NCBI GenBank assembly: GCA_963733095.1
Contig: CAVTBV010000014.1
Span: forward strand, 32,001 to 96,000
DNA: 64,000 nucleotides
Direction of reading: 5' to 3'
From: Candidatus Bathyarchaeota archaeon
GTDB lineage: Archaea > Thermoproteota > Bathyarchaeia > Bathyarchaeales > Bathycorpusculaceae
The notes under the pieces are model-generated. The model saw only the letters and a program-made list of their open reading frames with translations, was not told the DNA's origin and made no database searches. This document shows, piece after piece, positions 4,738-64,000 of this stretch. Position 1 is the stretch's first letter. The number at the start of each line of letters is the position of its first letter. Both the position numbers and the translations under genes were made by a program.

Positions 4738-5603
4738 TTTGGCATACTTGAGGGTTGGGCTGCTTTTCTTTGCAGAAACGTGTTCACAGCATCTATGAGC
4801 GCTTCACAAGCAAACCATCGCTCTTCCAAGGAACCATCTGTCTCCAATGTTTGGATTATTCTGCGGAATTTCTTTATCTCCTCCAGTACAGGTTCCCTTT
4901 TTCTGTCATACTCAGCCCGCAGTTCCTTTTGCTTGGCATTAAAATCCAGCATAACCAATTCAAGTTCCGCCTGCTTATCATTTAATTCCTGCACTATAAC
5001 CATCTCTTTCTGTTCCCTATCTTTTTTAGAAACACCGCGGAAAAACCCCGTTTTCATCCGAATAATCTTATCCTGCTCTTTTTTCAGGTGGTTTATGGTA
5101 CTGTATAGAAGCTTGATTTCGCTTTTTCTTTGACTTTGAATGTTTCCCGTCAAAGTTGCGTATTCTCCGTTGATTTGTTTTAGGCGACTTCTCCAATCTG
5201 TTAGATTCTTTAGTTCTTGATCAAGTGCAACTTCTTTGCGGCGCATGGCTTCAAGTTGAAACTTAATGCTGGCAAGTGCCTGCGCACGCTCCATCAGGAA
5301 TTGTTCATCTGCACCTACGTTTGGGTGTGACTCAAACTCGCTTAGAACATCTGTTACGTTTGTTAGCCAACGGTCAAAGTGCTCGCTGTACGGGGTAGAA
5401 CCAAACTTTTGGATGCCCAACGTATGCAACCGTTTGAGGGTTAATTCCGAAATTTCTCTTTCCGTTAAACTATGCTTCTCTTCCAGTATCGGCTTTTCAA
5501 TGCCTTTACGGATGCGTTTTCTATCCTTCCTTTTTTCGCGAAGAGGTTTTTTGTATCCGTGAATTGGACCTCTGGGCGGTTTCGCGCGAGGTTGGTATCC
5601 CAT
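4734..5603 (-). CDS. Hypothetical coiled-coil protein with basic N-terminus
   Basis: 289-aa ORF, long charged heptad-like central region. Confidence 0.7.
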   Translation of the reverse strand: MGYQPRAKPPRGPIHGYKKPLREKRKDRKRIRKGIEKPILEEKHSLTEREISELTLKRLHTLGIQKFGSTPYSEHFDRWLTNVTDVLSEFESHPNVGADEQFLMERAQALASIKFQLEAMRRKEVALDQELKNLTDWRSRLKQINGEYATLTGNIQSQRKSEIKLLYSTINHLKKEQDKIIRMKTGFFRGVSKKDREQKEMVIVQELNDKQAELELVMLDFNAKQKELRAEYDRKREPVLEEIKKFRRIIQTLETDGSLEERWFACEALIDAVNTFLQRKAAQPSSMPN

Positions 5604-5787
5604 AAACAGAACGTAGCACTCTTGAAGTATTTACTTTGTGCCTAACTGACTCTTAGTATCCTTATCAATAAATCAAAATAAGTGAAAGCGGAGGATCCGT
5701 CGTTTAAAGATCCAAGTACCCATTGTTTTTCGCTCAAACCACAAACGTAATAAGTTTATCTTGCAAAGAAGAATCGGTGAAATGATT

Positions 5788-6285
5788 ATGCCAAAGTTTA
5801 CAGTTAACCCTAGCCGAATTGACCCATATAAGAAATTCAAGTTCATAGTAAAGTGGGATGGTAAAATCGTTGCTGGCGTCTCCAAGATGAGTCCGCTGAA
5901 ACGAACCACAGACGTCATCCTACACAGGGACGGAGGCGACGCTAACGTGGATCGGAAATCCCCCGGTAAAACCCATTATGACGCTATAACTCTGGAGCGG
6001 GGTGTAACTCATGATCTTGAGTTTGAAGGTTGGGCGAATTTGGTGTTTAATAAAAACAGTGGGTCGATGTCTCTTAAGAACTTCCGAAAAGACTTAGTCA
6101 TCGAATTACTCAACGAAGCGGGCGTTCCAGTGATAGCCTACAAGGTTTATAGAAGCTGGGTCTCAGAGTACACTGCGCTGCCTGAATTGGATGCAGGCGA
6201 AAACGCAGTTGCCATACAAAGCATAACCATCCAGCACGAAGGCTGGGAAAGAGACACTGGAGTCGTTGAACCCAAAGAAACATAG
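5788..6285 (+). CDS. Phage/eCIS tail tube protein (T4 gp19-like, Afp1/Afp5 family)
   Basis: DPYKKFKFIVKWDG, PGKTHYDAITLERGVT, FRKDLVIELLNEAG, WVSEYTALPELDA..NAVAIQSITIQHEGW; GGTGA precedes ATG 5788. Confidence 0.92.
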   Translation: MPKFTVNPSRIDPYKKFKFIVKWDGKIVAGVSKMSPLKRTTDVILHRDGGDANVDRKSPGKTHYDAITLERGVTHDLEFEGWANLVFNKNSGSMSLKNFRKDLVIELLNEAGVPVIAYKVYRSWVSEYTALPELDAGENAVAIQSITIQHEGWERDTGVVEPKET

Positions 6286-6306
6286 AACCGCAGGTAGGAT
6301 ACGCAC

Positions 6307-6981
6307 TTGCCAAACATCAATAGAGGAACCCTGATTCTGCTCGCCCCAAACGCCAAAGACGCCTCCATCTCTCAACAGAACGTTTTCTTTGTCTTCCAAT
6401 ACAACCCCGAAAAATTACTCCACACCTTCAACCAATCACTGCCCTCTGCCTTAGCTGCAAACACTTCGGACCCGCAGTGGTTCCCATCTGAGCTCTTCAA
6501 CTTAACCTTTGAACTCGACAGCACTGACCTTGACCCACCAGCTCAAAACCAGACCCTTACAAACTTTGGTGTCCATCCAGCTTTAGCCATGCTAGAGCTA
6601 ATGATGCAACCTCAAGTGGTAGGCAAACAAACATCGTTGCCCATTGTTGTGTTCAAATGGGGTTCAAATCGGTCGGTACCGGTTCGTTTGATCAGCATGA
6701 GCGTCGAAGAACAATCCTTCGATGTAATCTTGAACCCAACTCGCGCCATGGTCAGTTTGACGCTAAGAGTGCTTGATGCTTCCGAAGTCAACGGCAACCC
6801 CGGTGCCCAAAGCGTCTTTTCAAGTCATCAAGGCGTTCGAGCTACGTTGGTTGATGCGTATAAGCTGCAAACTGGGCAGGCGACCTTTGTTGGTGGTGTT
6901 GGGGTTGCAGGCGCCAGCAGAGTGTCAAGTGATGGGGGTTCTGTAGCTAGCGTTTTGGGCGTTCGAAAGAAAAGTGCTTGA
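6307..6981 (+). CDS. Contractile injection system tube-initiator-like protein (CIS_tube/Afp7-related)
   Basis: FQYNPEKL, FELDSTD, GVHPALAMLELM, PIVVFKWG..RSVPVR, EEQSFDVILNPTRAMVSLTLRVL resemble eCIS-locus proteins; TTG start 21 nt after the tube gene. Confidence 0.75.
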   Translation: MPNINRGTLILLAPNAKDASISQQNVFFVFQYNPEKLLHTFNQSLPSALAANTSDPQWFPSELFNLTFELDSTDLDPPAQNQTLTNFGVHPALAMLELMMQPQVVGKQTSLPIVVFKWGSNRSVPVRLISMSVEEQSFDVILNPTRAMVSLTLRVLDASEVNGNPGAQSVFSSHQGVRATLVDAYKLQTGQATFVGGVGVAGASRVSSDGGSVASVLGVRKKSA

Positions 6982-7306
6982 TTCAACCTTTTTAGAAAAA
7001 ATAGGCAGGCTGGGCGAATATTTCAAATCGCTCGGCACCGCTTTCATAAATCATCTAGCTTTTCTGTATTAGTTTTTGTTTTAGATGCTTAATCTATAAT
7101 TTACTTCCTGATGTTTTCAACCGATTCGGCGACAGAAAGTAACCCCCACCTCTCCCGAAAGGTGCTTAAGGGCTTGTTTGCTCTCACAAGAGCATTGAAA
7201 AATACCGAAAGTTAAACTTCACGAGATTTTTCTGCAAAAATCAATTTTGTTTTTCTTAAATTTTGTTTGCTAACATTTAAATCAGGCGTTTAAATGCTTA
7301 GTTGAC

Positions 7307-7394
7307 TGGTGAGGAGCGCCTGTGAAGCGGTTGAATTGCCCCTCTCCCTTTCAATTGGGGTTTTTTCAATCGCGAAGGAGGAACAGACTCACCA
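7307..7394 (+). ncRNA. Candidate structured small RNA (long interrupted hairpin)
   Basis: Nested complementarity TGGTGAG/CTCACCA, CTGT/ACAG, GCGGTTGAA/TTCAATCGC, CCCC/GGGG; TTTAAA ~25 nt upstream; pyrimidine tract downstream. Confidence 0.45.
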
Positions 7395-7401
7395 TTTCTC
7401 T

Positions 7402-7842
7402 CTATCCGCGGTTACCATAACTCTTGTTCATGCAGTCTTGGCAGTAATTTCGCTTGAACCGTTTTATCCGCTTTGGCTGAAAGGGTTTTCCGCATGAACT
7501 GCACTTTATCTGGTTGACAGTTTTGGGGTCGAGTAGTTTGAGTCTTCTTTCAATCTCGCTTCTAACATCCACATCGTTTTCACTAACTAACGCATGAGTT
7601 AGAAGCATTTTGGCTTGTTCTTCACTTTGCTCCCCAAACATTTTGGAAAACACGTTGTTCTTTTTCTGATCCACACTTATCTGAGAGGGCAACATGCAGA
7701 TAAAATTCGACGGGTAACTCTTCGATTTATCTGAGTCGACTACGGCAAAGCGGTAATGTCTGCCCACATAGTTGCCCTCGACGTTATCTTGAGTGAATAT
7801 CTGTAACTTGAACTTCATGATGAACCCATATATAGAAAACAC
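7402..7842 (-). CDS. Hypothetical protein with C-terminal zinc finger
   Basis: CSSCG...YCQDC; true start may be the internal Met (MKFKLQ). Confidence 0.7.
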   Translation of the reverse strand: MFSIYGFIMKFKLQIFTQDNVEGNYVGRHYRFAVVDSDKSKSYPSNFICMLPSQISVDQKKNNVFSKMFGEQSEEQAKMLLTHALVSENDVDVRSEIERRLKLLDPKTVNQIKCSSCGKPFQPKRIKRFKRNYCQDCMNKSYGNRG

Positions 7843-9713: not shown

Positions 9714-10244
9714 ATGAAAATAAGAATCCTGAAACTATCACCCGAATCCCTCGCTGGATTAATGCAAGGCAAAGCATCCACTTTTGCCTATAACTTGCCT
9801 GTCGACGCTGAAATTCTAGACATAAAAATGGACCTGTTCACTAAACAAGTTTCCATGGTGATTAGGAGCGAAAGCTTCGAAGACATTGCCGAAGCCATAC
9901 CAATTCCAGAGGTTCAAATATCAAAAATCTTAGACTCCAAGAACGAACCTCAACCAGCCACGTCACCCATAAAACCTCAAGCCATGCCATCACCTGAACC
10001 TAAATCCAACATTGCAAAGCTGCCTCAGCCCCATCCAAACCGAATGGCATCAAAAATGGAGAATGAATTCAGCCCCGAACAGCGCAAACTCCTCAGCTTT
10101 ACAGTTAAAGAAGACTGCGTCATCGTTAAGCCAGTGATGTTTTTGAAGGCTGAATGGGACGACATAAATGAGGTTGTTAAGGGCATTGGTGGTAAATGGG
10201 TTAAAGGCGACATAATCAGCTACTGGGAAATTCCTCTACAATAG
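9714..10244 (+). CDS. Hypothetical protein, two small domains with Pro-rich linker
   Basis: 176-aa ORF; C-terminal INEVVKGIGGKWV..WEIP. Confidence 0.7.
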   Translation: MKIRILKLSPESLAGLMQGKASTFAYNLPVDAEILDIKMDLFTKQVSMVIRSESFEDIAEAIPIPEVQISKILDSKNEPQPATSPIKPQAMPSPEPKSNIAKLPQPHPNRMASKMENEFSPEQRKLLSFTVKEDCVIVKPVMFLKAEWDDINEVVKGIGGKWVKGDIISYWEIPLQ

Positions 10245-10318
10245 GTCGGAAAGGATTGAGTAAAAAACGAAAAAACTTTAAGCCAGAAAGGGCTAATTTG
10301 AAGGATAGTGAGCTAAAG

Positions 10319-10699
10319 ATGGAAAAAACTGATAAACCTCTAACAAGAGACGCCTTGGTCTCAATGCAAGTCATAGACGCTAAAGGGAAGCTAATGGGCA
10401 AGGTAAAGGATGTTGCTTTCGCAGTCGGAAAAATGGGCATTTCATTAACCATTGAAGATGAAAAGGGAGAACCACACAACGTTGCATGGGAAGATGTCCA
10501 AGCAGCCTCAGACTACATAATTCTAAAGCCCCAGATGGTTCTGCAAAGCACTTATCAACCACAGCAACAACCTGCTCAAACTGCAACTCAACCCGCCCAA
10601 CAGTCAACACAACCGGTTTGTCCAACATGCGGTAGACCTTTAACTTGGATTCCCCAATACCAACGATGGTACTGCTACAACGACAAAAAATACGTTTAA
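10319..10699 (+). CDS. PRC-barrel protein with Q/P-rich linker and C-terminal zinc-ribbon-like motif
   Basis: MQVIDAKGKLMGKVKDV...WEDVQAASDYIILK; CPTCGRPLTWIPQYQRWYCYND. Confidence 0.8.
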   Translation: MEKTDKPLTRDALVSMQVIDAKGKLMGKVKDVAFAVGKMGISLTIEDEKGEPHNVAWEDVQAASDYIILKPQMVLQSTYQPQQQPAQTATQPAQQSTQPVCPTCGRPLTWIPQYQRWYCYNDKKYV

Positions 10700-53756: not shown

Positions 53757-54842
53757 TTAGCTTAAAACTGACTCTACGTTCAAATTCAAAACAACTTCAG
53801 AAATGTCGCTGGCGTACTCCGCGGTTCGCCTAACGCTTTCAATCAGCAGTCTCAAGTTAACGATTTCTTCAACTTTAGCATTCTGCGAGCACAAAACAGC
53901 TTCCTTCTCAACTTTGTGCGCCTGGCTTAGTTTTTCGATAACAGTCTCCGCCAGGTTAAAATCGCGTTTGAACAGTGCTTCCATGGAGCTCTCAAACATT
54001 GAAATAGCTAAGGTGCTCAACTGGCTTATCTTTTCTAAAACCTCTTCTTTTACTGGTTCTTTAAGCAGCAGGGTGTTTTCAGCCATTTTTGTGGCGTGGT
54101 CAGCTGTTCTTTCAACGGCTTTTGCAATTAGTCTGTAGCCTAAGCATTCTTTTTGGTTGGTTAAACCGATTTCTTTAACAACCCTTTGATTTGTAACGGC
54201 CAACTTCAAAAGTCTTACTACGTAGAGTCCGAATCGGTTCACTTCGCGGTCAGTTTCTATAACGGCTTTGGCACCGGGGTAGTCGAGTTTTTTTAGTGAT
54301 GCTAAGGCTTCTCTATGCATGGATGACGAGATTATTCCCATTCTGCTTAATGCGTTTTGAACGGTAAGTTCAGGATAGTTAAGCAAAACCTGCAGGGTTA
54401 ATTCGGTTGGAGTGTCGATAACTATTTCTGTTCCGACAAGGTAGTTTCTTGCGAAGCTTTTTAGGTGGTTGCGCAGTTTTGAAGAGAGGACCTTTTGTCC
54501 TTGAGCTCTTATGTGGAGAACGTTGTAGCCGCTCAGGTAGGCTGATATTGCTGTTCTCATGATGGCGTCGGGGTTGTCGTTTATGGATGATTTGATGTAG
54601 GCTTCGTCTTGTTTTTGTTGTTTTGGAAAGCTTGAAGGAGCAATCGATAGTGAGCCATCTTCTTCTTCGCGGACCATCATTGCACTTCCGCGTTTGAGTT
54701 CGTTTTTGGTGGCCCAGTCTTTAGGTAGAGAAAGGATGAAGGTTGAGCCGCCTGTTACCTGGAGTTTACGTTGTTCTTCACTTAGTTTTTCTGTTTCTTT
54801 AGTCAAACTTGACTCCAAGTAACTCTTTTTACGATTAGTCAT
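53757..54842 (-). CDS. Phosphate uptake regulator (AbrB-type DNA-binding domain + PhoU domains)
   Basis: RKLQVTGGSTFILSLPKDWA; ERTADHA; RRTAEYASDI. Confidence 0.92.
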   Translation of the reverse strand: MTNRKKSYLESSLTKETEKLSEEQRKLQVTGGSTFILSLPKDWATKNELKRGSAMMVREEEDGSLSIAPSSFPKQQKQDEAYIKSSINDNPDAIMRTAISAYLSGYNVLHIRAQGQKVLSSKLRNHLKSFARNYLVGTEIVIDTPTELTLQVLLNYPELTVQNALSRMGIISSSMHREALASLKKLDYPGAKAVIETDREVNRFGLYVVRLLKLAVTNQRVVKEIGLTNQKECLGYRLIAKAVERTADHATKMAENTLLLKEPVKEEVLEKISQLSTLAISMFESSMEALFKRDFNLAETVIEKLSQAHKVEKEAVLCSQNAKVEEIVNLRLLIESVRRTAEYASDISEVVLNLNVESVLS

Positions 54843-54938
54843 TATATATGGTATATCTATATAGTCTATAAATTTTATGTAGATATACTATATAACCAAT
54901 GTATAATCTGTAGTTAAACAAAAACGAGGAATGAAAAT

Positions 54939-56051
54939 ATGAACACTAAATATGCCATAATAGCAATAGTTGCAATCGCTATAATACTCGGTTCAGTAGC
55001 GGCATACATTTACCTCTCACAACCCTCAGGCACATCTGGCCAAACCACAACCCTCAACGGCGCAGGAGCAACCTTCCCGTATCCACTCCTTGACTCCATG
55101 ATAGCAAGCTACTCAACAAATGTGAACACCAACGTCCAAATAAACTACCAGCCAATAGGCAGCGGCGGCGGAATTTCGGCAATGCATGACAAAACCGTTG
55201 ATTTTGGAGCCTCAGACGCACCATTAAGCGCAACTGACAAGGCTAATGTACCGAATGCATTGCATATCCCCGAAACAATTGGAGCAGTCACGGTAGCCTA
55301 TAATCTACCTGGCATTGCTTCTGGTCTACATCTAACGGGTCAAGTCATTGCAGACATTTTTGAAGGAAAAATAACCAAGTGGAATGACCCCTCAATTCAA
55401 AACATCAATTCCGGAATTACTCTTCCAAATGAGGGAATAAACACTGTTCACCGCTCTGATGGTTCAGGAACTACCTTCATCTTCACCAGCTACCTCAGCG
55501 CATCAAGCGCATCATGGAACAGCTCTGTAGGCGCAGGTAAATCGGTCTCTTGGCCAGTTGGAACAGGCTCAAACGGCAACACAGGAGTTGCTTCAACGGT
55601 AAACGGCACAAGATACGCCATCGGATACGTCGAATTAGCTTACATCCTACAAAATGGAATGACTGTTGCCGCAGTTCAGAATCCATCGGGAAACTGGGTC
55701 CTGCCCAGCCTTGATTCAACAACGGTTGCAGTTCAATCAGGTGCTTCAAGTGGATTGCCCGCAGGCGATGCAAGCTGGACTAACGTGAGTCTCCTCAACG
55801 CTCCAGACGCAAACGCATACCCCATAGTAAGCTTCACCTACCTGCTTTCGTACAAAGAGCTTAACGTGCTTTCCGACATGACACAGGCTAAGGCAACAGC
55901 TCTGGTCCAGTTTCTCTGGTACGTCGTACATGATGGACAAAACCTCGCCCCTCAACTTTCCTACGCAAAATTGCCCTCCAACGTAGTGCAAATCGACGAA
56001 ACAACAATCAAATCCATAACATTCAACGGACAAACACTTCCAACAACTTAA
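54939..56051 (+). CDS. pstS: Phosphate ABC transporter substrate-binding protein
   Basis: GAGATFP, GSGGG, DFGASD, HRSDGSGTT, AYPI. Confidence 0.97.
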   Translation: MNTKYAIIAIVAIAIILGSVAAYIYLSQPSGTSGQTTTLNGAGATFPYPLLDSMIASYSTNVNTNVQINYQPIGSGGGISAMHDKTVDFGASDAPLSATDKANVPNALHIPETIGAVTVAYNLPGIASGLHLTGQVIADIFEGKITKWNDPSIQNINSGITLPNEGINTVHRSDGSGTTFIFTSYLSASSASWNSSVGAGKSVSWPVGTGSNGNTGVASTVNGTRYAIGYVELAYILQNGMTVAAVQNPSGNWVLPSLDSTTVAVQSGASSGLPAGDASWTNVSLLNAPDANAYPIVSFTYLLSYKELNVLSDMTQAKATALVQFLWYVVHDGQNLAPQLSYAKLPSNVVQIDETTIKSITFNGQTLPTT

Positions 56052-56052
56052 G

Positions 56053-57042
56053 GTGGATAACACTCTGACGCAGTCCCACCCCCAAAACTTTTTTACAAAA
56101 ATAAAAACTATATTAACAGGAGACTTTCTATTCAAGAATATAGCCGCTATCGTGGCGGCTTCAGCAATCGTAATTTTAATTATAACCGGTTACATCCTTG
56201 CAAGCGGCTCAGTGCCTGTAATTCAAAAGTTCGGCTCAAACTTCTTTTTCGGCAGCGCTTGGAACCCTGTTGAGGGCAGAGAAATCTACGGTGCACTCCC
56301 CTATGTGATGGGCACCCTTGTCACTTCAGGTATCGCGCTACTAATTGGTGTCCCGTTGAGTTTGGGAATAGCAGTTTTTCTTGTAGAGATGTCGCCTCGA
56401 ACACTCAGGGTGCCAATCGGCTATTTAGTTGAGTTGTTGGCTGCTGTTCCAAGCGTGATTTATGGACTTTGGGGGTTGTTTGTTTTTCGTTACTGGATTT
56501 TGGATTATGTAGAAAAACCCATATCCACATACCTTGGGTGGATTCCTATTTTTAGCGGAACACCGTTTGGTCTGGATATTTTTACTGCAGGAATTATCTT
56601 GGCAATCATGATAATTCCCACAATTGCATCCATCTCGAAAGAAGTCATAAGCGCCGTTCCAAACAGCATCCGCGAAGGCGCCTACAGCATCGGAGCAACA
56701 AAATGGGAAGTCATCCGCCACTGGGTAATCAGCTATGGGCGCTCAGGAATTTTCGGTGCAGTAATTTTAGGCTTAGGCAGAGCTGTGGGCGAGACAATGG
56801 CTGTTGCAATGCTTATCGGCAATGCTACAGGACCAGCAGCGATGCCTACGTCGCTTTTTAAACCCAGCCAAACTATGTCTTCCCTTATCGCCAACGGGTT
56901 CTTGGAAGCGACTGGTTCCTTGCAGGTTTCTGCCTACATCGGGGTTGGATTAATCCTTCTCATAATCAGCTTGCTCATCAACATTGGTGCAGGCGTTTTG
57001 GTTCATCGTGTATTGAAGGTTAAGGGAGGTGCAATAGAATAA
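56053..57042 (+). CDS. pstC: Phosphate ABC transporter permease
   Basis: WNP, ELLAAVPSVIYGLWG, LGLGRAVGETMAV. Confidence 0.96.
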   Translation: MDNTLTQSHPQNFFTKIKTILTGDFLFKNIAAIVAASAIVILIITGYILASGSVPVIQKFGSNFFFGSAWNPVEGREIYGALPYVMGTLVTSGIALLIGVPLSLGIAVFLVEMSPRTLRVPIGYLVELLAAVPSVIYGLWGLFVFRYWILDYVEKPISTYLGWIPIFSGTPFGLDIFTAGIILAIMIIPTIASISKEVISAVPNSIREGAYSIGATKWEVIRHWVISYGRSGIFGAVILGLGRAVGETMAVAMLIGNATGPAAMPTSLFKPSQTMSSLIANGFLEATGSLQVSAYIGVGLILLIISLLINIGAGVLVHRVLKVKGGAIE

Positions 57043-57869
57043 TCTCCAACTATAGCTTCCGCAAATTCAAGAACCGCCTGTTCTTCATTCTATGCGCCGT
57101 CTGTGTGGTCCTTACGGTTACTCCATTGCTCAGCATCCTTTGGGAAGTCATCGTAAGGGGTGCACCTCAGCTAAGCATTGGCTTTTTGATTAACAACAAC
57201 TCTGGAGGAGGAATTGGACCCGCAATACAGGGCACTCTCATTTTGATTGGGTTAACAAGCCTATTCGGTATCCCTGTTGGAATAATCTCAGGTGTTTACC
57301 TTGCCGAATTCGGAAACAACAAGTATGCAACTGCCATGCGCTCAATCAATGATGTATTAACAGAGTTTCCATCCATCGTCGTCGGCATCACAGCTTATGG
57401 CGTAATAGTCATCGCCCTCATCGGACACTACTCAGCAATTGCAGGAGCTATCGCACTCTCATTCATCCTAATCCCCATCGTCGCAAGAACAACCGAAGAA
57501 TCCCTAAAACTCGTCCCAAACAGCGTCCGAGAAGCATCCCTTGCCCTCGGCGCCCACAAATGGCGAACAACACTAAGCGTCGTATTGCCCACCGCCAAAG
57601 CCGGTTTGCTCACTGGAACACTCCTCGCAGTTGCCCGAATCGCAGGAGAAACCGCCCCCTTAATCATGACAATACTGGGAAACCGGTACTTCTTCCAAGG
57701 CTTAAACCAGCCCATGGCAGCTTTACCCCTTGAAATTTGGCGAGACTCCCTCCAGCCGCAAGCCAGCCTTCAGGCGCAGGGTTGGGGAGCAGCCCTAATC
57801 TTGATTCTCATGGTACTCAGCCTAAACATTATAGTTAGAATAGCAACAAGAGGTAGAAACAAAAGATGA
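57039..57869 (+). CDS. pstA: Phosphate ABC transporter permease; probable ATA start
   Basis: [28 protein letters not shown]; frame open upstream of GTG 57105 to ATA 57039 after GGAGGTG. Confidence 0.93.
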
Positions 57870-58663
57870 CAAGCACAACTAATACTCAAACAAAAGCTGT
57901 TGACCCAGAAATGAAAATGCAGAGTATTGAATTAAACGCTTGGTTTGGGGCAAAACAAGCATTAAAAAACGTAAACATCAATATCAAAGCAAACGCGGTA
58001 ACCGCCATAATTGGGCCATCAGGATGCGGCAAATCCACTTTTATCCGTTGCCTAAACCGAATGCACGAACTCACCCCAACCGCTAAAATGACCGGACAAA
58101 TACTGTTGGACGGACAAAACATCTACGACAAACAAGTTGACCCTGTTCAGGTTCGCCGAAGAGTCGGCATGGTTTTCCAAAAGCCCAACCCCTTCCCAAC
58201 AATGTCCATATACGACAACGTTGCCGCCGGCTTAAAGCTGACAGGCACTAAGAAAGGCAAGAACCTCGACGAAGTAGTCAAACGCAGCTTAGAGCAGGCC
58301 ACCCTTTGGGAAGAAGTTAAAGCTGATTTGAAGAAGCCCGGCACGAGCATTTCTGGGGGCCAGCAGCAGCGTCTCTGCATTGCACGGGCTATCGCGTTGC
58401 AGCCTGAAGTTATCTTAATGGATGAACCATGTTCAGCGTTGGATCCGATTGCGACGGCTAAGATTGAGCGGTTAGTGGTTGAACTTAAACGAGATTACAC
58501 CGTTGCCATAGTTACTCATAACATGCAGCAGGCGTCGCGAGTGTCGGATTATACAGCTTTTATGTACCTTGGCTCGTTAATAGAGTTTGGACCGACACGA
58601 GATATTTTTGAATCTCCCAAAAATCCATTAACAGAAAAATACATAACAGGAGAATTCGGATAG
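57866..58663 (+). CDS. pstB: Phosphate ABC transporter ATPase
   Basis: [35 protein letters not shown]. Confidence 0.97.
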
Positions 58664-58674
58664 GAGACTAAAGT

Positions 58675-59319
58675 ATGAGCAGAATAATTGACCGCGGATT
58701 AGAAGAGGAGTCAGTCTTAATTGTTAGGATGGGTGAGTTAACCTATGATACCCTTGCCCTTTCAATTCATGGGTACCTTGAAGGCAAAAGTGTTCAGAAA
58801 CAAGTTGAGGAAATGTCGGACATTCTTCTTACGATGGCTGATAAGGTTGAAGATGAAACCTTCCAGTTAATCGCCCGTTTCCAACCCGTCGCCACTGACC
58901 TTAGAACCATAAAATCCTACATGAAAATTGCAACAGACTTTGCAAGATACGGCCGATATTCACTCGATATCGCCTTCATCAATGACCAACTGCATGGAAC
59001 AAAAGAATGTGAAACTTGGACCCGTGACTATATAAATGAAATGAGCGAAAAAGTCCTCACAATGGTCAAAATAAGTGTGACAGCACTGAAAAGACAGGAC
59101 ATCACCCTTGCTAAAACGATTTCAGAAACTGAACGCCAAGTCGACAAAATGTACTTCGACTATCTCAACAAACTAATCAAAGAAGAACAAGCTAACAGCA
59201 AATGCGTTCTATCGAGCGCTTTGATGACCCGGTATTTGGAGCGCATTGCTGACCATGCGGTCTACGTTTGTGAATCAATCGTTTACATAGTGACGGGCAA
59301 AAAGGTAAACTTGGGCTAA
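58675..59319 (+). CDS. phoU: Phosphate signalling protein PhoU
   Basis: ARFQPVATDLR, RYLERIADHA. Confidence 0.93.
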   Translation: MSRIIDRGLEEESVLIVRMGELTYDTLALSIHGYLEGKSVQKQVEEMSDILLTMADKVEDETFQLIARFQPVATDLRTIKSYMKIATDFARYGRYSLDIAFINDQLHGTKECETWTRDYINEMSEKVLTMVKISVTALKRQDITLAKTISETERQVDKMYFDYLNKLIKEEQANSKCVLSSALMTRYLERIADHAVYVCESIVYIVTGKKVNLG

Positions 59320-59752
59320 ATCAATCTGGCTCAGAGGCAATTCAATTATAACCTTTGCGCCCTTGCCGAGGTTTTTTTCAAAACTTACGTTTCCACATTA
59401 ACTCAGAACCATTTGTCTGAAGTAGTGCATTATTTTTCAAACGTTAACCTGCTTCTAGTTAATACCAAGAGTGCGCAGGTTTTAGACAATTAAACAATCT
59501 TCCCTAAGGCTTGATATTAACTTGGTAGCTTTTTTACTGTAATTTGGTTTGTCCTCTATTTCGATGAGGCCTCTGTAAGCTTTTCTATTAAACTGCCATC
59601 GATAAATATCTGTTTCAATTCAATTTTCAGACGATGTTTTAGCGATTAATGATAGCATGTTAAACCATATACTGTTAGCGCTATCAACCTAAACCGCCGA
59701 CGCCATAGGTAATATTAAGCTCCGCAACCTAAATGTTATTGGATGATTTTGG

Positions 59753-60655
59753 ATGTCAATTGATGCAGAAGACTTCAAGGTTCCGGCGGGAAAAAAGGTT
59801 AGTTTGAAGGATTATGATTCCAACTGGGTTCCAAAATGGGCCAAAAAACAAGAACAAAAAGAAGGAAAAAAAGCGATAAAAGAACAAGCCTCAGCGCTTC
59901 TTGAAGCCAACAGGCAAAAGCTGATCACTCAACAGGAATTGTTCTGGGCAAGTGCCACCTATTCGATGTTGATTATTCTTCAAGGGATGGATGCCGCTGG
60001 GAAAGACGGCACAATCAATCATGTCATGTCAGGGGTTAATCCACAAGGCTGCCAAGTTGCAAGTTTCAAAACCCCTTCAGCCGAGGAACTAAATCATGAT
60101 TTCCTCTGGCGATACACTAAAGCTCTTCCAGAAAGAGGCATCATAGGAATTTTTAACCGTTCATACTATGAGGACGTGTTGATTGTTAAGGTACGACCCG
60201 AAGTTCTGGAAAAAACGAAATTGCCCCATCAAGACGAAGGGGAACACTTTTGGGCTCAGAGGTATGAGGACATTAATCTGTTTGAACGTCATTTGGTTCG
60301 GAACGGCACGGTTGTGTTAAAATTCTTCCTCAACCTTTCAAAGAAAGAGCAGAAGAACCGTTTGCTTGACCGACTCGAACACGCGGATAAAGAATGGAAA
60401 TTTTCGTTAACTGACCTTTCTGAACGCTCCAAATGGACAGATTATATGGGGGCATATGAAGATATGCTCAATAATACGAGCACTGATTGGGCTCCGTGGT
60501 ATGTTATTCCTGCAGATAAAAAATGGGTTGCTCATGCGTCGATTTCTGAGATTATTCTTTCGGAAATCAAAAAGTTGGATTTAAAATATCCTGTTTTAAG
60601 CAAAGAGCAATGTGATGCTTTGGAAAAAGCAAGAACTGAACTGGAAAAGGAATAA
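59753..60655 (+). CDS. ppk2: Polyphosphate kinase 2 family (class III-like)
   Basis: QGMDAAGKDG, FKTPS, HDFLWR, FNRSYYEDVL, APWYVIPAD. Confidence 0.93.
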   Translation: MSIDAEDFKVPAGKKVSLKDYDSNWVPKWAKKQEQKEGKKAIKEQASALLEANRQKLITQQELFWASATYSMLIILQGMDAAGKDGTINHVMSGVNPQGCQVASFKTPSAEELNHDFLWRYTKALPERGIIGIFNRSYYEDVLIVKVRPEVLEKTKLPHQDEGEHFWAQRYEDINLFERHLVRNGTVVLKFFLNLSKKEQKNRLLDRLEHADKEWKFSLTDLSERSKWTDYMGAYEDMLNNTSTDWAPWYVIPADKKWVAHASISEIILSEIKKLDLKYPVLSKEQCDALEKARTELEKE

Positions 60656-60675
60656 ACAGTTTCGGGATGCCTAAA

Positions 60676-62256
60676 TTATGTATCATGGTTAACTATGCAA
60701 TGTGCATCCAGTTCTTTCCCGAATGCTTCAAAGAATGCTTGTCGGTTCTGGATAATGCTCCACTCTTCCAAGCTGCAATCTGAATCGGAATAAAACGAGA
60801 GCAACACCTGATCTTTGCTCATCTTAACAAATTCAGCCTTCTTCACAAGGCAACAGTGACTTCGATCAAGCTTTTCTGCAAAACGAAGAAAGGTGGAAAG
60901 AACCGCGATTGTATGGTTAGTTTTCTCGTCCAATCCCGTATTTTTCAAAGCCTTCTTCGATGGCAGTTTTTTGCGGTGAAAACGAGCTATGTTGGCCATT
61001 ATTTGAACTTCCTTTTTGTCAAAACCTAAGAGTTCAGCGTTGCTGATGATATAGTGGGAGTGAAGTTGGTGGTTGTTAAACGAGAGAAAATCTCCAACAT
61101 CATGCAAAGTTGCAGCATGCGTCAAAAGTTCTTTTTCGGTTTCTCCAAGGTTGTGAAGCCCGATTTGTTTTGCACTTTCAAAAAGTTGCAGGGCCAAAGA
61201 AGCCACTGTTTCGGAATGTTTCTCGTCAAAGTTGCATGACCTGCCTAAATGCAGAATGCTCCTACTCCTTGTGGGTGCTTTCTGCAGTTCTCGAAAGCCC
61301 TCAAAATTAGACAGATATTCTGAGAGCAATCCATCGCGGAGTTCTCGGTGGCTGATACGGATTTCTTCTATGCCGAATTGTTCCATGATTGCCTCGATTA
61401 TAGCTGCTCCAGCTATTATGATGTCTGCGCGGTCTGGATTGATAGCTGGTACTTTTTTCCTTTCCGCAAGAGGCAGCCAGCAAAGAACCGTCGCAAGCTT
61501 TTTGAGGTTTTTCCTGGTTAACATTAATTCGTTGTTGGGGTTGTTTTTCTTGAACAGTTTGTTTGAGACCTCTGCCAAGTTTATCATGGTGCCTGATGAG
61601 CCCCATGCTAACCTAACGCCGTACTCTAAAACTCTGGGTTTAACCACTTTTATCTTAGTGCAAGCGTAGTGCTTTATTTTCTTGTAGGTTTCAGTTTTTA
61701 TGGGTCCAGTCCAGCCTTCGCCAATAAACTTTGACGTTAGCCGGATTGCTCCCAACCTCAGACTGTTCAAATAGAAGCTTTCATGTTGGTTTCCGATGGC
61801 AATTTCTGTGCTGCCACCGCCTAAATCGATGAAAATGGCTTTTTGGTCGCCAATATCTATACCGCTGGAGACACCTAACCAAATGAGTCGCGCTTCTTCC
61901 TCCCCTGAAATAACATTAACGTTGAGCCCTGTTTTGTCATGGAGGTTTTGCAGAAACTCACATTGGTTTTCGGCTTCTCGAATTGCCGAGGTACCGACTG
62001 ATATTATTTCTGAGGCACCATATGTTTTGGCTAGGTTAGCAAATTTTCCACAGACAAATATTGCGCGCTCCATTGCTTGGGGTTTAAGTATGTTATCTTT
62101 GAATTCATCTTCCCCTAACCTGACGACTTCTTTTTCTTGACTGATGATGGTGTATGAGAAATTTGGGTTTATCCTCACCACTAAAAGACGAACTGCGTTG
62201 GTTCCGATGTCCACGAACCCGACTACATGTCCAGCGGTTTTAACGACTGCTTCCAT
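60676..62256 (-). CDS. ppx: Exopolyphosphatase Ppx/GppA with C-terminal HD domain
   Basis: DIGTNAVRL, TSAIREA, GEEEARL, DLGGGSTE, RADII, LHDVG. Confidence 0.94.
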   Translation of the reverse strand: MEAVVKTAGHVVGFVDIGTNAVRLLVVRINPNFSYTIISQEKEVVRLGEDEFKDNILKPQAMERAIFVCGKFANLAKTYGASEIISVGTSAIREAENQCEFLQNLHDKTGLNVNVISGEEEARLIWLGVSSGIDIGDQKAIFIDLGGGSTEIAIGNQHESFYLNSLRLGAIRLTSKFIGEGWTGPIKTETYKKIKHYACTKIKVVKPRVLEYGVRLAWGSSGTMINLAEVSNKLFKKNNPNNELMLTRKNLKKLATVLCWLPLAERKKVPAINPDRADIIIAGAAIIEAIMEQFGIEEIRISHRELRDGLLSEYLSNFEGFRELQKAPTRSRSILHLGRSCNFDEKHSETVASLALQLFESAKQIGLHNLGETEKELLTHAATLHDVGDFLSFNNHQLHSHYIISNAELLGFDKKEVQIMANIARFHRKKLPSKKALKNTGLDEKTNHTIAVLSTFLRFAEKLDRSHCCLVKKAEFVKMSKDQVLLSFYSDSDCSLEEWSIIQNRQAFFEAFGKELDAHCIVNHDT

Positions 62257-64000
62257 ATCAGCACCATTCTTTTAGCGAAGACCTTTTCAAACAAATCCTT
62301 CTTCTTATTAAAAGCCTGCTCTTCGAGCATGGATCTTGTTTTGGAAACGCATTCAACAGTAATTCTCTTAGTGCTCACTTTCACATTTAGGGCTTCTGCT
62401 ATTGCCTGATGTGTATAATCTAAGGCGTCCGCAACGCGGAGCAGACTCGACAACATCTTTACTTTTTGGACAGTTAACCGATCCAAAGTCGAAAGGTTGT
62501 AGTTGTCTAGTTCGGGCAACGCTTTGCGGTGGTACCTCGCAACACTTGCAATTATCCGCCTTTCCAGTGAAGTGAAGGGCAGCTTCGTTTCGTTAAGGAT
62601 AAGTTTGGCTGACCTTTTGTGGTGGCTGCTCCTGGATCTTACCAAGCCAATATCGTGCAGAATTGCCGCGCATTCAAGCCAGCACCGTTCACGCATCCCC
62701 AAGTTATGTACCTTAATTAAACCGTCAAATAATGATAAAGTAAGTTTACTAACATGGCTGTAATGCTCAGTGTCGGGCCAATACTTTTTTGAAATTTCAT
62801 CCGAAACCTGTACCATTTTGTCGCAGTCTTGAACCATCAAGTCTTCTTTGGCTTGATCCTCTTTGATAATAGTATCCAAAGATACTCCGCGAAGTAGCAT
62901 CTGAGAGAAACTTTCAGGCAAACCCTTCCGTCTTAGGGCTTCAGCTGCGCCCTCAACGTCGTAATCCAACCGAATTAACTCAACTTTAAACGGGTTAAAA
63001 CTTAAAATCGCATAAGCCGCCTGAGGGTTTCCATCGCCGGGTCTACCTACACTTCCAGGGTTCACAAACCAAACTCCTTTTGCCCGTTTGCGGAACTGTT
63101 CATGAGAATGCCCCATGATGACCACGTCTGCTTTAGCAGTGTCTGCCAGAGGTTTCAGACGTTCAATCGGAGTGTCACGGTAAATGTGCTCTTCAATCGA
63201 CTCGGGACTCCCGTGTGTAACAAGCAGTTTTTTGCCTGCCGCTTCAAGCCGAAGTTCACGCGGCAAAGAAAAAAGGTAACATTTGCAGGACCTCTCCAGC
63301 TCTTTTCTCGCAAATTTCAAGGCAAGGTTTTTTTCGCCTTTAGCCCCTGCTTTGCCCTCTACAACATCCAGGTCGTAATTTCCCAATATGCTTAACACGT
63401 TTTTCTCGCACAACAACTCCACAACTTCGTTTGGGCAAGGACCAAAACCTATCGAGTCCCCAGCATTAACAAAAGCGTTGACTCCCCGTGCTTCAGCATC
63501 GACAATAACTGTTTCTAAAGCATTCAGATTAGCATGAACATCTGACAAAACCGCGATTTTCAAATCTGGGTCTACGAGAACCTGTTTTATTTTTTCTTCA
63601 TCTTTCGCCGCGGATTCTGCATTTATTGTTTTGATGAGCTGAACAAAAAAGCCGGTCTGTTTGTTTTCTTCCCAAAAACGAACGAATTCTTCATAGTTTT
63701 CTTTTCTTTTTCCTTTCACAAAGCTCAGGAAATTTGAGAGCGCTTGCTCTATTTTTGCGGTATTGGCTGGTTTCTTCTGTTTCGATTTTGTTTTGACGAT
63801 TGTTTCTTGCAGGAATTTAGGGATATATTCGATCCAGACGTCGCAATCATGTATTTCGCCCAGAATATCCTGAAACGTCTTAATTGTTTCTATTTCCTCT
63901 CCAAGCTTGTTCGGGTAGAGTGACGCAAACGATTCCATGGTGTAACGGAGTTTCTTCGCGCATATTCTCATTTCATGATGTTTTAAAATTTCATTTTCCG
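62223..64000 (-). CDS. CHAD + metallophosphoesterase + HD fusion protein (5' end outside window)
   Basis: H.MRICAKKLRY..E and QDILGEIHD (CHAD); SDVHAN, GD, GNYD, HGSP, GHSH, NPGSVG (phosphoesterase); LHDIG, ARYH, DALD (HD). Confidence 0.9.
   Translation of the reverse strand, partial: ENEILKHHEMRICAKKLRYTMESFASLYPNKLGEEIETIKTFQDILGEIHDCDVWIEYIPKFLQETIVKTKSKQKKPANTAKIEQALSNFLSFVKGKRKENYEEFVRFWEENKQTGFFVQLIKTINAESAAKDEEKIKQVLVDPDLKIAVLSDVHANLNALETVIVDAEARGVNAFVNAGDSIGFGPCPNEVVELLCEKNVLSILGNYDLDVVEGKAGAKGEKNLALKFARKELERSCKCYLFSLPRELRLEAAGKKLLVTHGSPESIEEHIYRDTPIERLKPLADTAKADVVIMGHSHEQFRKRAKGVWFVNPGSVGRPGDGNPQAAYAILSFNPFKVELIRLDYDVEGAAEALRRKGLPESFSQMLLRGVSLDTIIKEDQAKEDLMVQDCDKMVQVSDEISKKYWPDTEHYSHVSKLTLSLFDGLIKVHNLGMRERCWLECAAILHDIGLVRSRSSHHKRSAKLILNETKLPFTSLERRIIASVARYHRKALPELDNYNLSTLDRLTVQKVKMLSSLLRVADALDYTHQAIAEALNVKVSTKRITVECVSKTRSMLEEQAFNKKKDLFEKVFAKRMVLIWKQSLKPLDM

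Follow-up and report, generated by a model that had tools for sequence, protein, structure and literature searches.

To our knowledge, every contractile injection system (CIS) described so far is built on a baseplate, from which the tube is nucleated and which keeps the sheath loaded and triggers firing. The described systems closest to the genes considered here are the extracellular CIS (eCIS) of the antifeeding prophage (Afp) and Photorhabdus virulence cassette (PVC) type and, within the archaea, the haloarchaeal CIS, also termed an archaeal type VI secretion system (9EZM), which passages of Zachs et al. (2024, PMC11566945) present as a functional archaeal contractile system of contact-dependent antagonism. 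Here we report on a stretch of 64,000 nt, hereafter the window (GCA_963733095.1, contig CAVTBV010000014.1; G000:C14:32001-96000), from G000, a Bathyarchaeia metagenome-assembled genome (MAG) of 2.84 Mb in 16 contigs that is 95% complete. The window carries, among housekeeping genes, a cassette of two genes, a tube gene and a tube-initiator-like second gene that we call cis2, and a single sheath gene lies on another contig of the same genome, in which our searches detected no baseplate gene. Our preferred reading, which we hold at about even chances, is that these genes form a selected, reduced derivative of an Afp/PVC-type eCIS, an initiator-seeded and probably sheathed tube that lacks baseplate and spike and serves another cellular role.

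The tube gene (5788-6285 of the window, forward strand) encodes a 165-aa protein of the gp19/Afp1/Pvc1 type, with matches to PF06841 (E 4e-41, 140.4 bits, curated cut-off 28.2), TIGR02241 (E 3e-41, 140.5 bits, cut-off 62.4) and the tail tube family phrog_4542. The open reading frame (ORF) as listed runs from 5761 to 6285, but the true start is most likely the ATG at 5788, giving a product that begins MPKF, since the orthologues begin MPQF at a matching ATG or GTG. Sequence matches of the tube in the PDB include the tubes of the Anabaena CIS (7b5h) and AlgoCIS (7adz), Afp1 and Pvc1, and its identity is 59-68% to the tubes of complete eCIS from the same genus and 56-66% to bacterial eCIS tubes. 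In the tube tree, the tubes of 14 cassettes come together in a single group adjoining those of eCIS (support 77/96, recovered in 79% of bootstrap trees).

The second gene, cis2 (6307-6981, forward strand), encodes 224 aa from a TTG start that is common to most of its orthologues, and three lines of comparison point to its identity. PF19266 CIS_tube is matched at 32.4 bits (E 1e-7, cut-off 27), and an alignment profile of 72 cis2 homologues matches three solved chains, namely 9rce_H, 8kea_P (named 'tube initiator') and 6rao_G (Afp7). In the AlphaFold2 model (pLDDT 82.5), residues 1 to about 160 form a beta-rich core, a tube-like beta-barrel of the Afp7/Pvc7 type, and are followed by a long helix (residues 165-189) and a disordered tail, and the top nine Foldseek matches to this model are all CIS or phage baseplate chains (8kea_P, 7b5h_AK, 7aeb_M, 9gtp_M, 9qgl_7A, 6rao_G, 6j0n_b, 6rbk_A and 8kea_R; E 5e-8 to 4e-7, TM 0.45-0.52), drawn from cyanophage A-1(L) initiators and from the Anabaena CIS, AlgoCIS, Streptomyces CIS, PVC and Afp. 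Initiators of the Afp7/Pvc7 type typically carry a C-terminal domain of the LysM or peptidoglycan-binding type, and 9rce_H bears the name 'Peptidoglycan-binding protein'. Conservation among 16 aligned cis2 orthologues extends through the core as far as '...LVDAYKLQTGQ', beyond which comes a variable tail rich in Gly, Ser and Ala with a basic end, and LysM gave no match in cis2 at E up to 1. By profile and predicted fold, cis2 is a homologue of Afp7/Pvc7-type tube initiators without the usual C-terminal module. It directly follows the tube gene, and none of the spike or gp25 neighbours typical of initiator genes was found in G000. A complex prediction for the tube with residues 1-195 of cis2 scored 0.00 and gives no verdict either way.

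An earlier sequence-only reading of the window had described two intact, co-oriented ORFs 21 nt apart amid unrelated host genes, in a stretch without recognisable sheath, baseplate, spike, capsid and integrase genes, and the sequence and the family scan bear this out. The window holds 78 ORFs of at least 110 aa; 58 were included in the family scan, the two cassette ORFs were scanned separately, and the other 18 were set aside as overlapping an ORF of greater length or duplicating one that is open-ended. Across the 58 scanned ORFs there was no match to any family of sheath, baseplate, spike, capsid or integrase proteins, and the cassette has genes of the housekeeping kind as its neighbours (TrkA, GNAT, GT87, OTCase, ribosomal proteins, Spt5 and TBP).

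The same reading had called the module sheath-less, which does not hold at the level of the genome. A PF04984 search of G000 found exactly one sheath gene (G000:C3:68796-69875; 359 aa), whose product combines the PF04984 Phage_sheath_1 and PF17482 Phage_sheath_1C domains, aligns from one end to the other with Afp2 and with Pvc2 (residues 8-356 against 7-351), and is of the single-chain Pvc2/Afp2 type. Its best match of solved structure is the haloarchaeal CIS sheath 9EZM (E 9.5e-114). The gene is flanked by housekeeping genes, with HerA, NurA and a 195-aa ORF upstream and cytochrome c assembly, fasciclin and HIT genes downstream, and its site next to fasciclin and HIT is kept in at least eight of nine further genomes; at the G002 locus no flank gene matched. 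Sheath loci carry a conserved upstream motif of their own, ACCAATAYRCACAAAAA, which differs from that of the cassette. The 195-aa ORF (G000:C3:68200-68787) stops 8 nt short of the sheath gene, and four sister genomes have it at the same place with 80-94% identity; its 3' end holds ACCAATAYRCACAAAAA, and ACCAATAYRCACAAAAA precedes the sheath even in genomes without this ORF. Broken or split short sheaths also occur at the conserved site (L039/L045 in G012:C5, G115:C14:220245-221315, G110:C12, G112:C11 and G032:C166).

Apart from these three genes, no part of an eCIS was detected in G000. The PF06841 search found the window tube only, and no match was obtained in the genome with PF04965, PF05954, PF14065, PF05488, PF12322 and PF13699 (gp25, Phage_GPD, Pvc16_N, PAAR, T4_baseplate and eCIS_core, respectively; with Pvc16_N and T4_baseplate, the genomes named as controls gave no match either) or in a family search for a Phage_base_V-type spike. 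As a positive control, the same family searches detect gp25, cap and spike in G006, G017 and G029. The sole Baseplate_J match (C9:196379-196696) is weak and was discarded as a false positive, the protein being in reality a pyridine-nucleotide-disulphide oxidoreductase of the thioredoxin-reductase-like kind. When all ORFs from two complete same-genus eCIS loci were compared with G000 by tblastn, only the sheath, the tube and cis2 were matched; the remaining matches were generic, to PKD proteins and to AAA proteins at 28-32% identity, with no close homologue of the eCIS AAA among them. One PKD-domain protein (G000:C14:152833-154182) is 35% identical over 476 aa to a PKD protein just upstream of the G029 eCIS, and many further PKD matches exist in G000. 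Capsid, terminase, portal and integrase genes were absent from the 58 window ORFs and from 22 ORFs around the sheath, and no whole-genome scan for capsid or terminase was made. A complete eCIS or tail locus elsewhere, which the sequence-only reading had named in advance as what could account for the cassette, was thus not found in G000, and its suggestion of a satellite locus supplying parts to such an eCIS is unsupported because there is no eCIS in this genome, as far as these searches reach, to be supplied.

We then compared G000 with its relatives, using a set of 120 species genomes of the genus and seeking cis2 relatives with protein queries instead of the PF19266 family search. The cassette is not unique to G000: cis2 orthologues (54-76% identity) occur in 22 of the 120 species, G000 included, and an intact short sheath (58-76% identity) in 28, the two being found together in 14 species. 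The tube and cis2 are adjacent in all 11 named Bathyarchaeota loci, in whose flanks, within the DNA examined, no further eCIS gene was found, and they are the sole gene families common across at least five genomic contexts; in seven of seven metagenome loci, the tube also directly precedes cis2. By comparison, gp25 was detected in 13 of the 120 species, and among the 22 cassette genomes only in G115, with a weak match of 29.9 bits far from the cassette. Two genomes are closed in a single contig, and the tube and the sheath lie 506 kb apart in one (G014), as do cis2 and the sheath by 733 kb in the other (G096); G014 gave no match for gp25, cap or spike, and G096 none for gp25.

These data bear on the possibility that the genes still serve a firing contractile machine, whose baseplate or anchor would be made of unrecognisable proteins or be encoded by an unbinned extrachromosomal element. 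All three genes retain the features of working eCIS parts and are strongly constrained, the MAG is 95% complete, weak families can escape, and many ORFs of the window and the genome have no Pfam match, all of which would suit such a machine. Against this, the closed genomes show the same pattern without gp25, and in G014 without cap and spike as well; no third gene accompanies the cassette in five contexts; and cis2 has lost what Afp7-type proteins carry after their tube-like domain, a shortening that would fit the loss of baseplate contacts. Taken together, we regard a machine of this kind as unlikely.

Selection on the three genes was estimated as pairwise ratios of nonsynonymous to synonymous substitution (dN/dS) by the method of Nei and Gojobori (NG86) for pairs with dS < 2.5, and the values are rough because synonymous sites are near saturation in many pairs. 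The median was 0.065 for the tube (range 0.02-0.16, 75 of 105 pairs), 0.156 for cis2 (0.09-0.24, 62 of 120 pairs) and 0.118 for the sheath (0.09-0.18, 6 of 28 pairs), which resembles the flanking host genes, namely a coiled-coil gene (0.19, range 0.14-0.26, 10 of 10 pairs), the GT87 gene (0.13, 0.11-0.18, 8 of 10 pairs) and a zinc-ribbon gene (0.025, 0.022-0.029, 4 of 6 pairs). The flanking gene mem219 (0.87) was left aside as an outlier produced by one divergent or mis-started copy (L074). Of the further loci analysed, 14 of 15 have an intact tube ORF, all 15 an intact cis2 ORF (one being cut by a contig end) and all 7 an intact sheath ORF, with lengths that stay constant and identities of 51-91%. 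In L076 the tube (10001-10496) appears frameshifted near residue 140 next to an intact cis2, by sequencing error or as a recent pseudogene.

Rough as the values are, neutral decay is excluded. The neutral dN/dS that the sequence-only reading had contemplated did not appear, purifying selection being seen on both the tube and cis2, and its description of the module as domesticated fits a cassette that is isolated, self-contained and conserved under purifying selection in many relatives. The idea that these genes are decaying, functionless relics of a lost eCIS or prophage could draw on the broken copies, that is, the frameshifted tube and the sheath fragments or stops in G012:C5, G115, G110, G112 and G032, and on the complete eCIS loci present in the genus, which would mean that loss is ongoing. 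However, nearly all ORFs are intact and of constant length, their dN/dS lies at 0.07-0.16 and the upstream motif is kept in 16 of 16 loci, so that we give this explanation hardly any credence and rank it last.

The motif in question, CCACAAACGTAATAAG (consensus CCRCAAAYRTAATAAG), spans 16 nt at window positions 5739-5754 on the forward strand, about 49 nt before the tube ATG, and it precedes the cassette in all 16 aligned loci, whatever the flanks. It has a single exact match (0 mismatches) in the whole G000 genome and is probably a promoter element, BRE/TATA-like (BRE, B recognition element), that travels with the cassette. The TTTATC (5755-5760) and GGTGA (5776-5780) to which the sequence-only reading had drawn attention are both present upstream of the cassette, the former being a variable stretch right after the CCACAAACGTAATAAG motif. 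The 21-nt spacer between the tube and cis2 (6286-6306, forward strand) contains AGGTAGGAT at 6292-6300, which is likely the ribosome-binding site for the TTG start of cis2, and GGTAGG-like words recur in most orthologous spacers. A TTTTT run (6989-6993, forward strand), 8 nt past the cis2 stop, is a possible archaeal terminator, judging from its letters.

The cassette has also changed its place. In G002:C9 the orthologous intergenic site, between the coiled-coil gene cc289 and the zinc-ribbon gene znr146, is empty and measures about 300 nt, and the cassette of that genome sits on a different contig. Alignment of window positions 5590-7415 with L086:1190-1515 shows that the window carries about 1.5 kb extra, approximately 5646-7290 (no strand assigned), with a sharp left edge at 5645/5646 and a fuzzy right edge at about 7150-7290. 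No convincing terminal repeats bound this segment, and no integrase, transposase or recombinase was found among the neighbours of the cassette. A 14-nt direct repeat of 86% identity (5695-5708 and 7281-7294) lies near the segment edges and may be due to chance. Adjoining the cassette is a gene for a 146-aa zinc-ribbon protein (7402-7842, reverse strand) that belongs to a multi-copy family. In G028, G013 and G016, members of this family occur at 0.8-4 kb from solo Pvc16_N genes, and in G029 at 25 kb from the complete eCIS; this proximity could go back to an ancestral locus of which it is a remnant, reflect a functional link or be due to chance. Among IMG/VR viral contigs no close relative of cis2 was found, and a viral origin of the cassette was rejected given that the sole match (33%) belongs to a complete eCIS. 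The contig L121, filed as viral in IMG/VR, carries such a complete eCIS, with sheath, tube, cap, ATPase, eCIS_core, initiator, spike, gp25 and Baseplate_J.

Such shifts of genomic place, which are shared by many defence genes, raise the question of whether the products could be decoys that poison the tail assembly of incoming myoviruses or of foreign eCIS particles, and decoys would be expected to resemble just such structural homologues, encoded by a host in which the remainder of the machine is missing. However, the tube changes slowly (dN/dS 0.065), unlike a protein engaged in an arms race, there are no defence-type neighbours, and IMG/VR offers no close relative of cis2, its one 33% match lying inside a complete eCIS. 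We consider decoys to be very improbable.

Coming back to the reduced eCIS derivative, several observations weigh against it and have to be set beside the evidence above. In phage T4 and in the T6SS (type VI secretion system), a sheath without a baseplate is not known to assemble in the extended, contractile state, and therefore the sheathed tube may not form as proposed. The eight cassette genomes outside the 14 with an intact sheath comprise two with a broken orthologous sheath (G012 and G115) and six without a sheath match, these six being 61-96% complete, and 14 of the 28 sheath genomes have no cassette. The cassette motif was not found upstream of the sheath in G000, and since the cassette motif is single in the genome and the sheath has another motif, shared regulation of the two, which we had entertained, is not supported. 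With co-occurrence incomplete and the motifs distinct, cassette and sheath could have functions independent of each other. Lastly, the PF19266 family search of G000 came back empty, missing the window's own cis2, and the controls were silent as well; weak families can therefore escape detection, which is why tblastn with the same-genus eCIS proteins was also run, and divergent baseplate proteins or an extrachromosomal element may be present, given a MAG that is 95% complete.

The same observations could be taken to mean that the tube-initiator pair works alone, forming a tube or ring that has no sheath (an Hcp-like ring or a chaperone, for instance), with the sheath being separate or unconnected. 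The 6 of 22 cassette genomes without a sheath match, the 14 of 28 sheath genomes without the cassette, and the lack of linkage between cassette and sheath with their different upstream motifs all agree with this, as do other reduced sets without an adjacent sheath, such as the tube with Pvc16_N in G008 and G030 and the lone tube in G042. On the other hand, cassette and sheath occur together in 14 genomes against about five expected if they were independent (22 x 28 / 120), an excess that is overstated because kin genomes are not independent. In G012 the sheath at the conserved site is broken, yet a second, intact pair of a short sheath and a tube paralogue is present elsewhere. Moreover, sheath, tube and initiator-like genes are clustered in the sister species G129 and G114, which argues that the three belong together. 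On balance, a pair acting without the sheath seems to us improbable.

Under the eCIS-derivative reading, the two-gene operon with its own promoter-like motif and the lone sheath would be the remains of an Afp/PVC-type eCIS whose genes for the baseplate wedge, spike, cap, ATPase and effectors were lost in this Bathyarchaeia lineage. In the cytoplasm, tube hexamers would polymerise, with a cis2 ring seeding or capping the polymer at one of its ends, the sheath, where present, would polymerise around this tube, and the product would be a structural or dynamic filament. Without gp25/wedge, spike and cap, the assembly would be incapable of classical injection, triggered by a baseplate and tipped by a spike, and would have some other cellular role. 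We also put forward, more tentatively and with somewhat less than even confidence, that the triad represents a new class of CIS-derived machine, a cytoplasmic sheathed filament without baseplate or spike that does not inject and that arose from eCIS at least twice in one genus.

The cassette is under selection in about one fifth of the species of an abundant and largely uncultured archaeal genus, closed genomes without a detected baseplate or spike included. Either a minimal sheath-tube polymer is useful by itself, an exaptation that would be comparable to the one by which capsids gave rise to encapsulins, or parts not yet recognised can make up a baseplate. In a separate part of the window (53757-63971) lies a phosphate/polyphosphate neighbourhood, with a PhoU-like regulator, a pst-type ABC transporter, PhoU, PPK2 and Ppx/GppA, which also encodes a CHAD-metallophosphatase-Ppx fusion.

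With respect to the Serratia Afp and the Photorhabdus PVC (6rao, 6j0b and 6j0n), the tube is homologous to Afp1/Pvc1, the sheath to Afp2/Pvc2 and cis2 to Afp7/Pvc7 in both sequence profile and fold. In contrast to these eCIS, the G000 genes are unclustered (C14 and C3), and gp25, Baseplate_J, spike, PAAR, cap, T4_baseplate, ATPase and eCIS_core were not found in the genome. At 574 aa against 359 aa, the haloarchaeal CIS has the longer sheath, and G000 yielded no further part of a system of that kind. A modelled, 321-aa one-domain sheath, from an assembly labelled 'Candidatus Bathyarchaeota archaeon' and the shortest in its set, appears in passages of Evseev et al. (2022, PMC9230969). The sheath on C3 is a protein of that kind too, and those passages are silent on its context, partners, any absence of a baseplate, and selection. 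In the literature on reduced or baseplate-lacking CIS in Bathyarchaeia or other archaea, with subscription journals and supplements outside the scope, we found no such set described, only the passing note of a short sheath.

The complete eCIS of the same genus (G029:C2, G017:C51 and G006:C191) place the tube right after a long sheath of 566-704 aa, and the annotated loci of G029 and G017 cluster T4_baseplate/DUF6760, Pvc16_N, an AAA ATPase, eCIS_core/LysM, a Phage_base_V spike, CIS_tube, gp25 and Baseplate_J. The closest bacterial and Methanotrichaceae tubes sit in the same complete layout. Compared with these loci, cis2 is 31-38% identical to the CIS_tube protein and the G000 sheath matches the N- and C-terminal parts of the long sheath, but only three genes are left, the sheath is of the short form and the genes are unlinked. 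The complete eCIS is likely the ancestral state of the cassette and the sheath.

Other reduced forms were also seen. In G129:C8 (L113, 9097-12102) and G114:C6 (L114, 8986-11998), the short sheath is back to back with a tube and a fusion gene, and no baseplate gene was found among the ORFs scanned within about 4.5 kb. The fusion protein (382-384 aa in these two, 382-391 aa when that of G123 is counted) is cis2-like in its N-terminal half (33-36% identity) and AAA in its C-terminal half, which is 47-48% identical to an eCIS ATPase and has only generic matches of 28-31% in G000; if the filament reading is true, this fusion would point to ATP-driven assembly or recycling. Relative to G000, the sheath of these triads is 46% and the tube 64-68% identical, and both arrangements are flanked by housekeeping genes, but in the triads the sheath is adjacent and the initiator-like domain AAA-fused, whereas in G000 the sheath is unlinked and cis2 unfused. 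In G123:C4 (L116, 8968-10720) the tube is paired with the initiator::AAA fusion and the sheath lies about 50 kb away, and in G102, where the loci are unannotated, the matching cis2-type and sheath matches are on separate contigs. In G008 (L058, C13, 9463-10534) and G030 (L054, C2, 9006-10044), a paralogue of the tube, with 28-30% identity to that of the window, is followed by a gene for a Pvc16_N cap-like protein of 187-192 aa, with the sheath elsewhere; solo Pvc16_N genes of about 300 aa exist in several further genomes of the genus. G042, with its lone tube gene, belongs to another family. Given the forms seen in G129 and G114, in G008 and G030, in G012 and in G042, the reduction of an eCIS to a few dispersed parts is a repeated theme, and eCIS surveys that demand clustered core genes miss a sizeable class of such derivatives.

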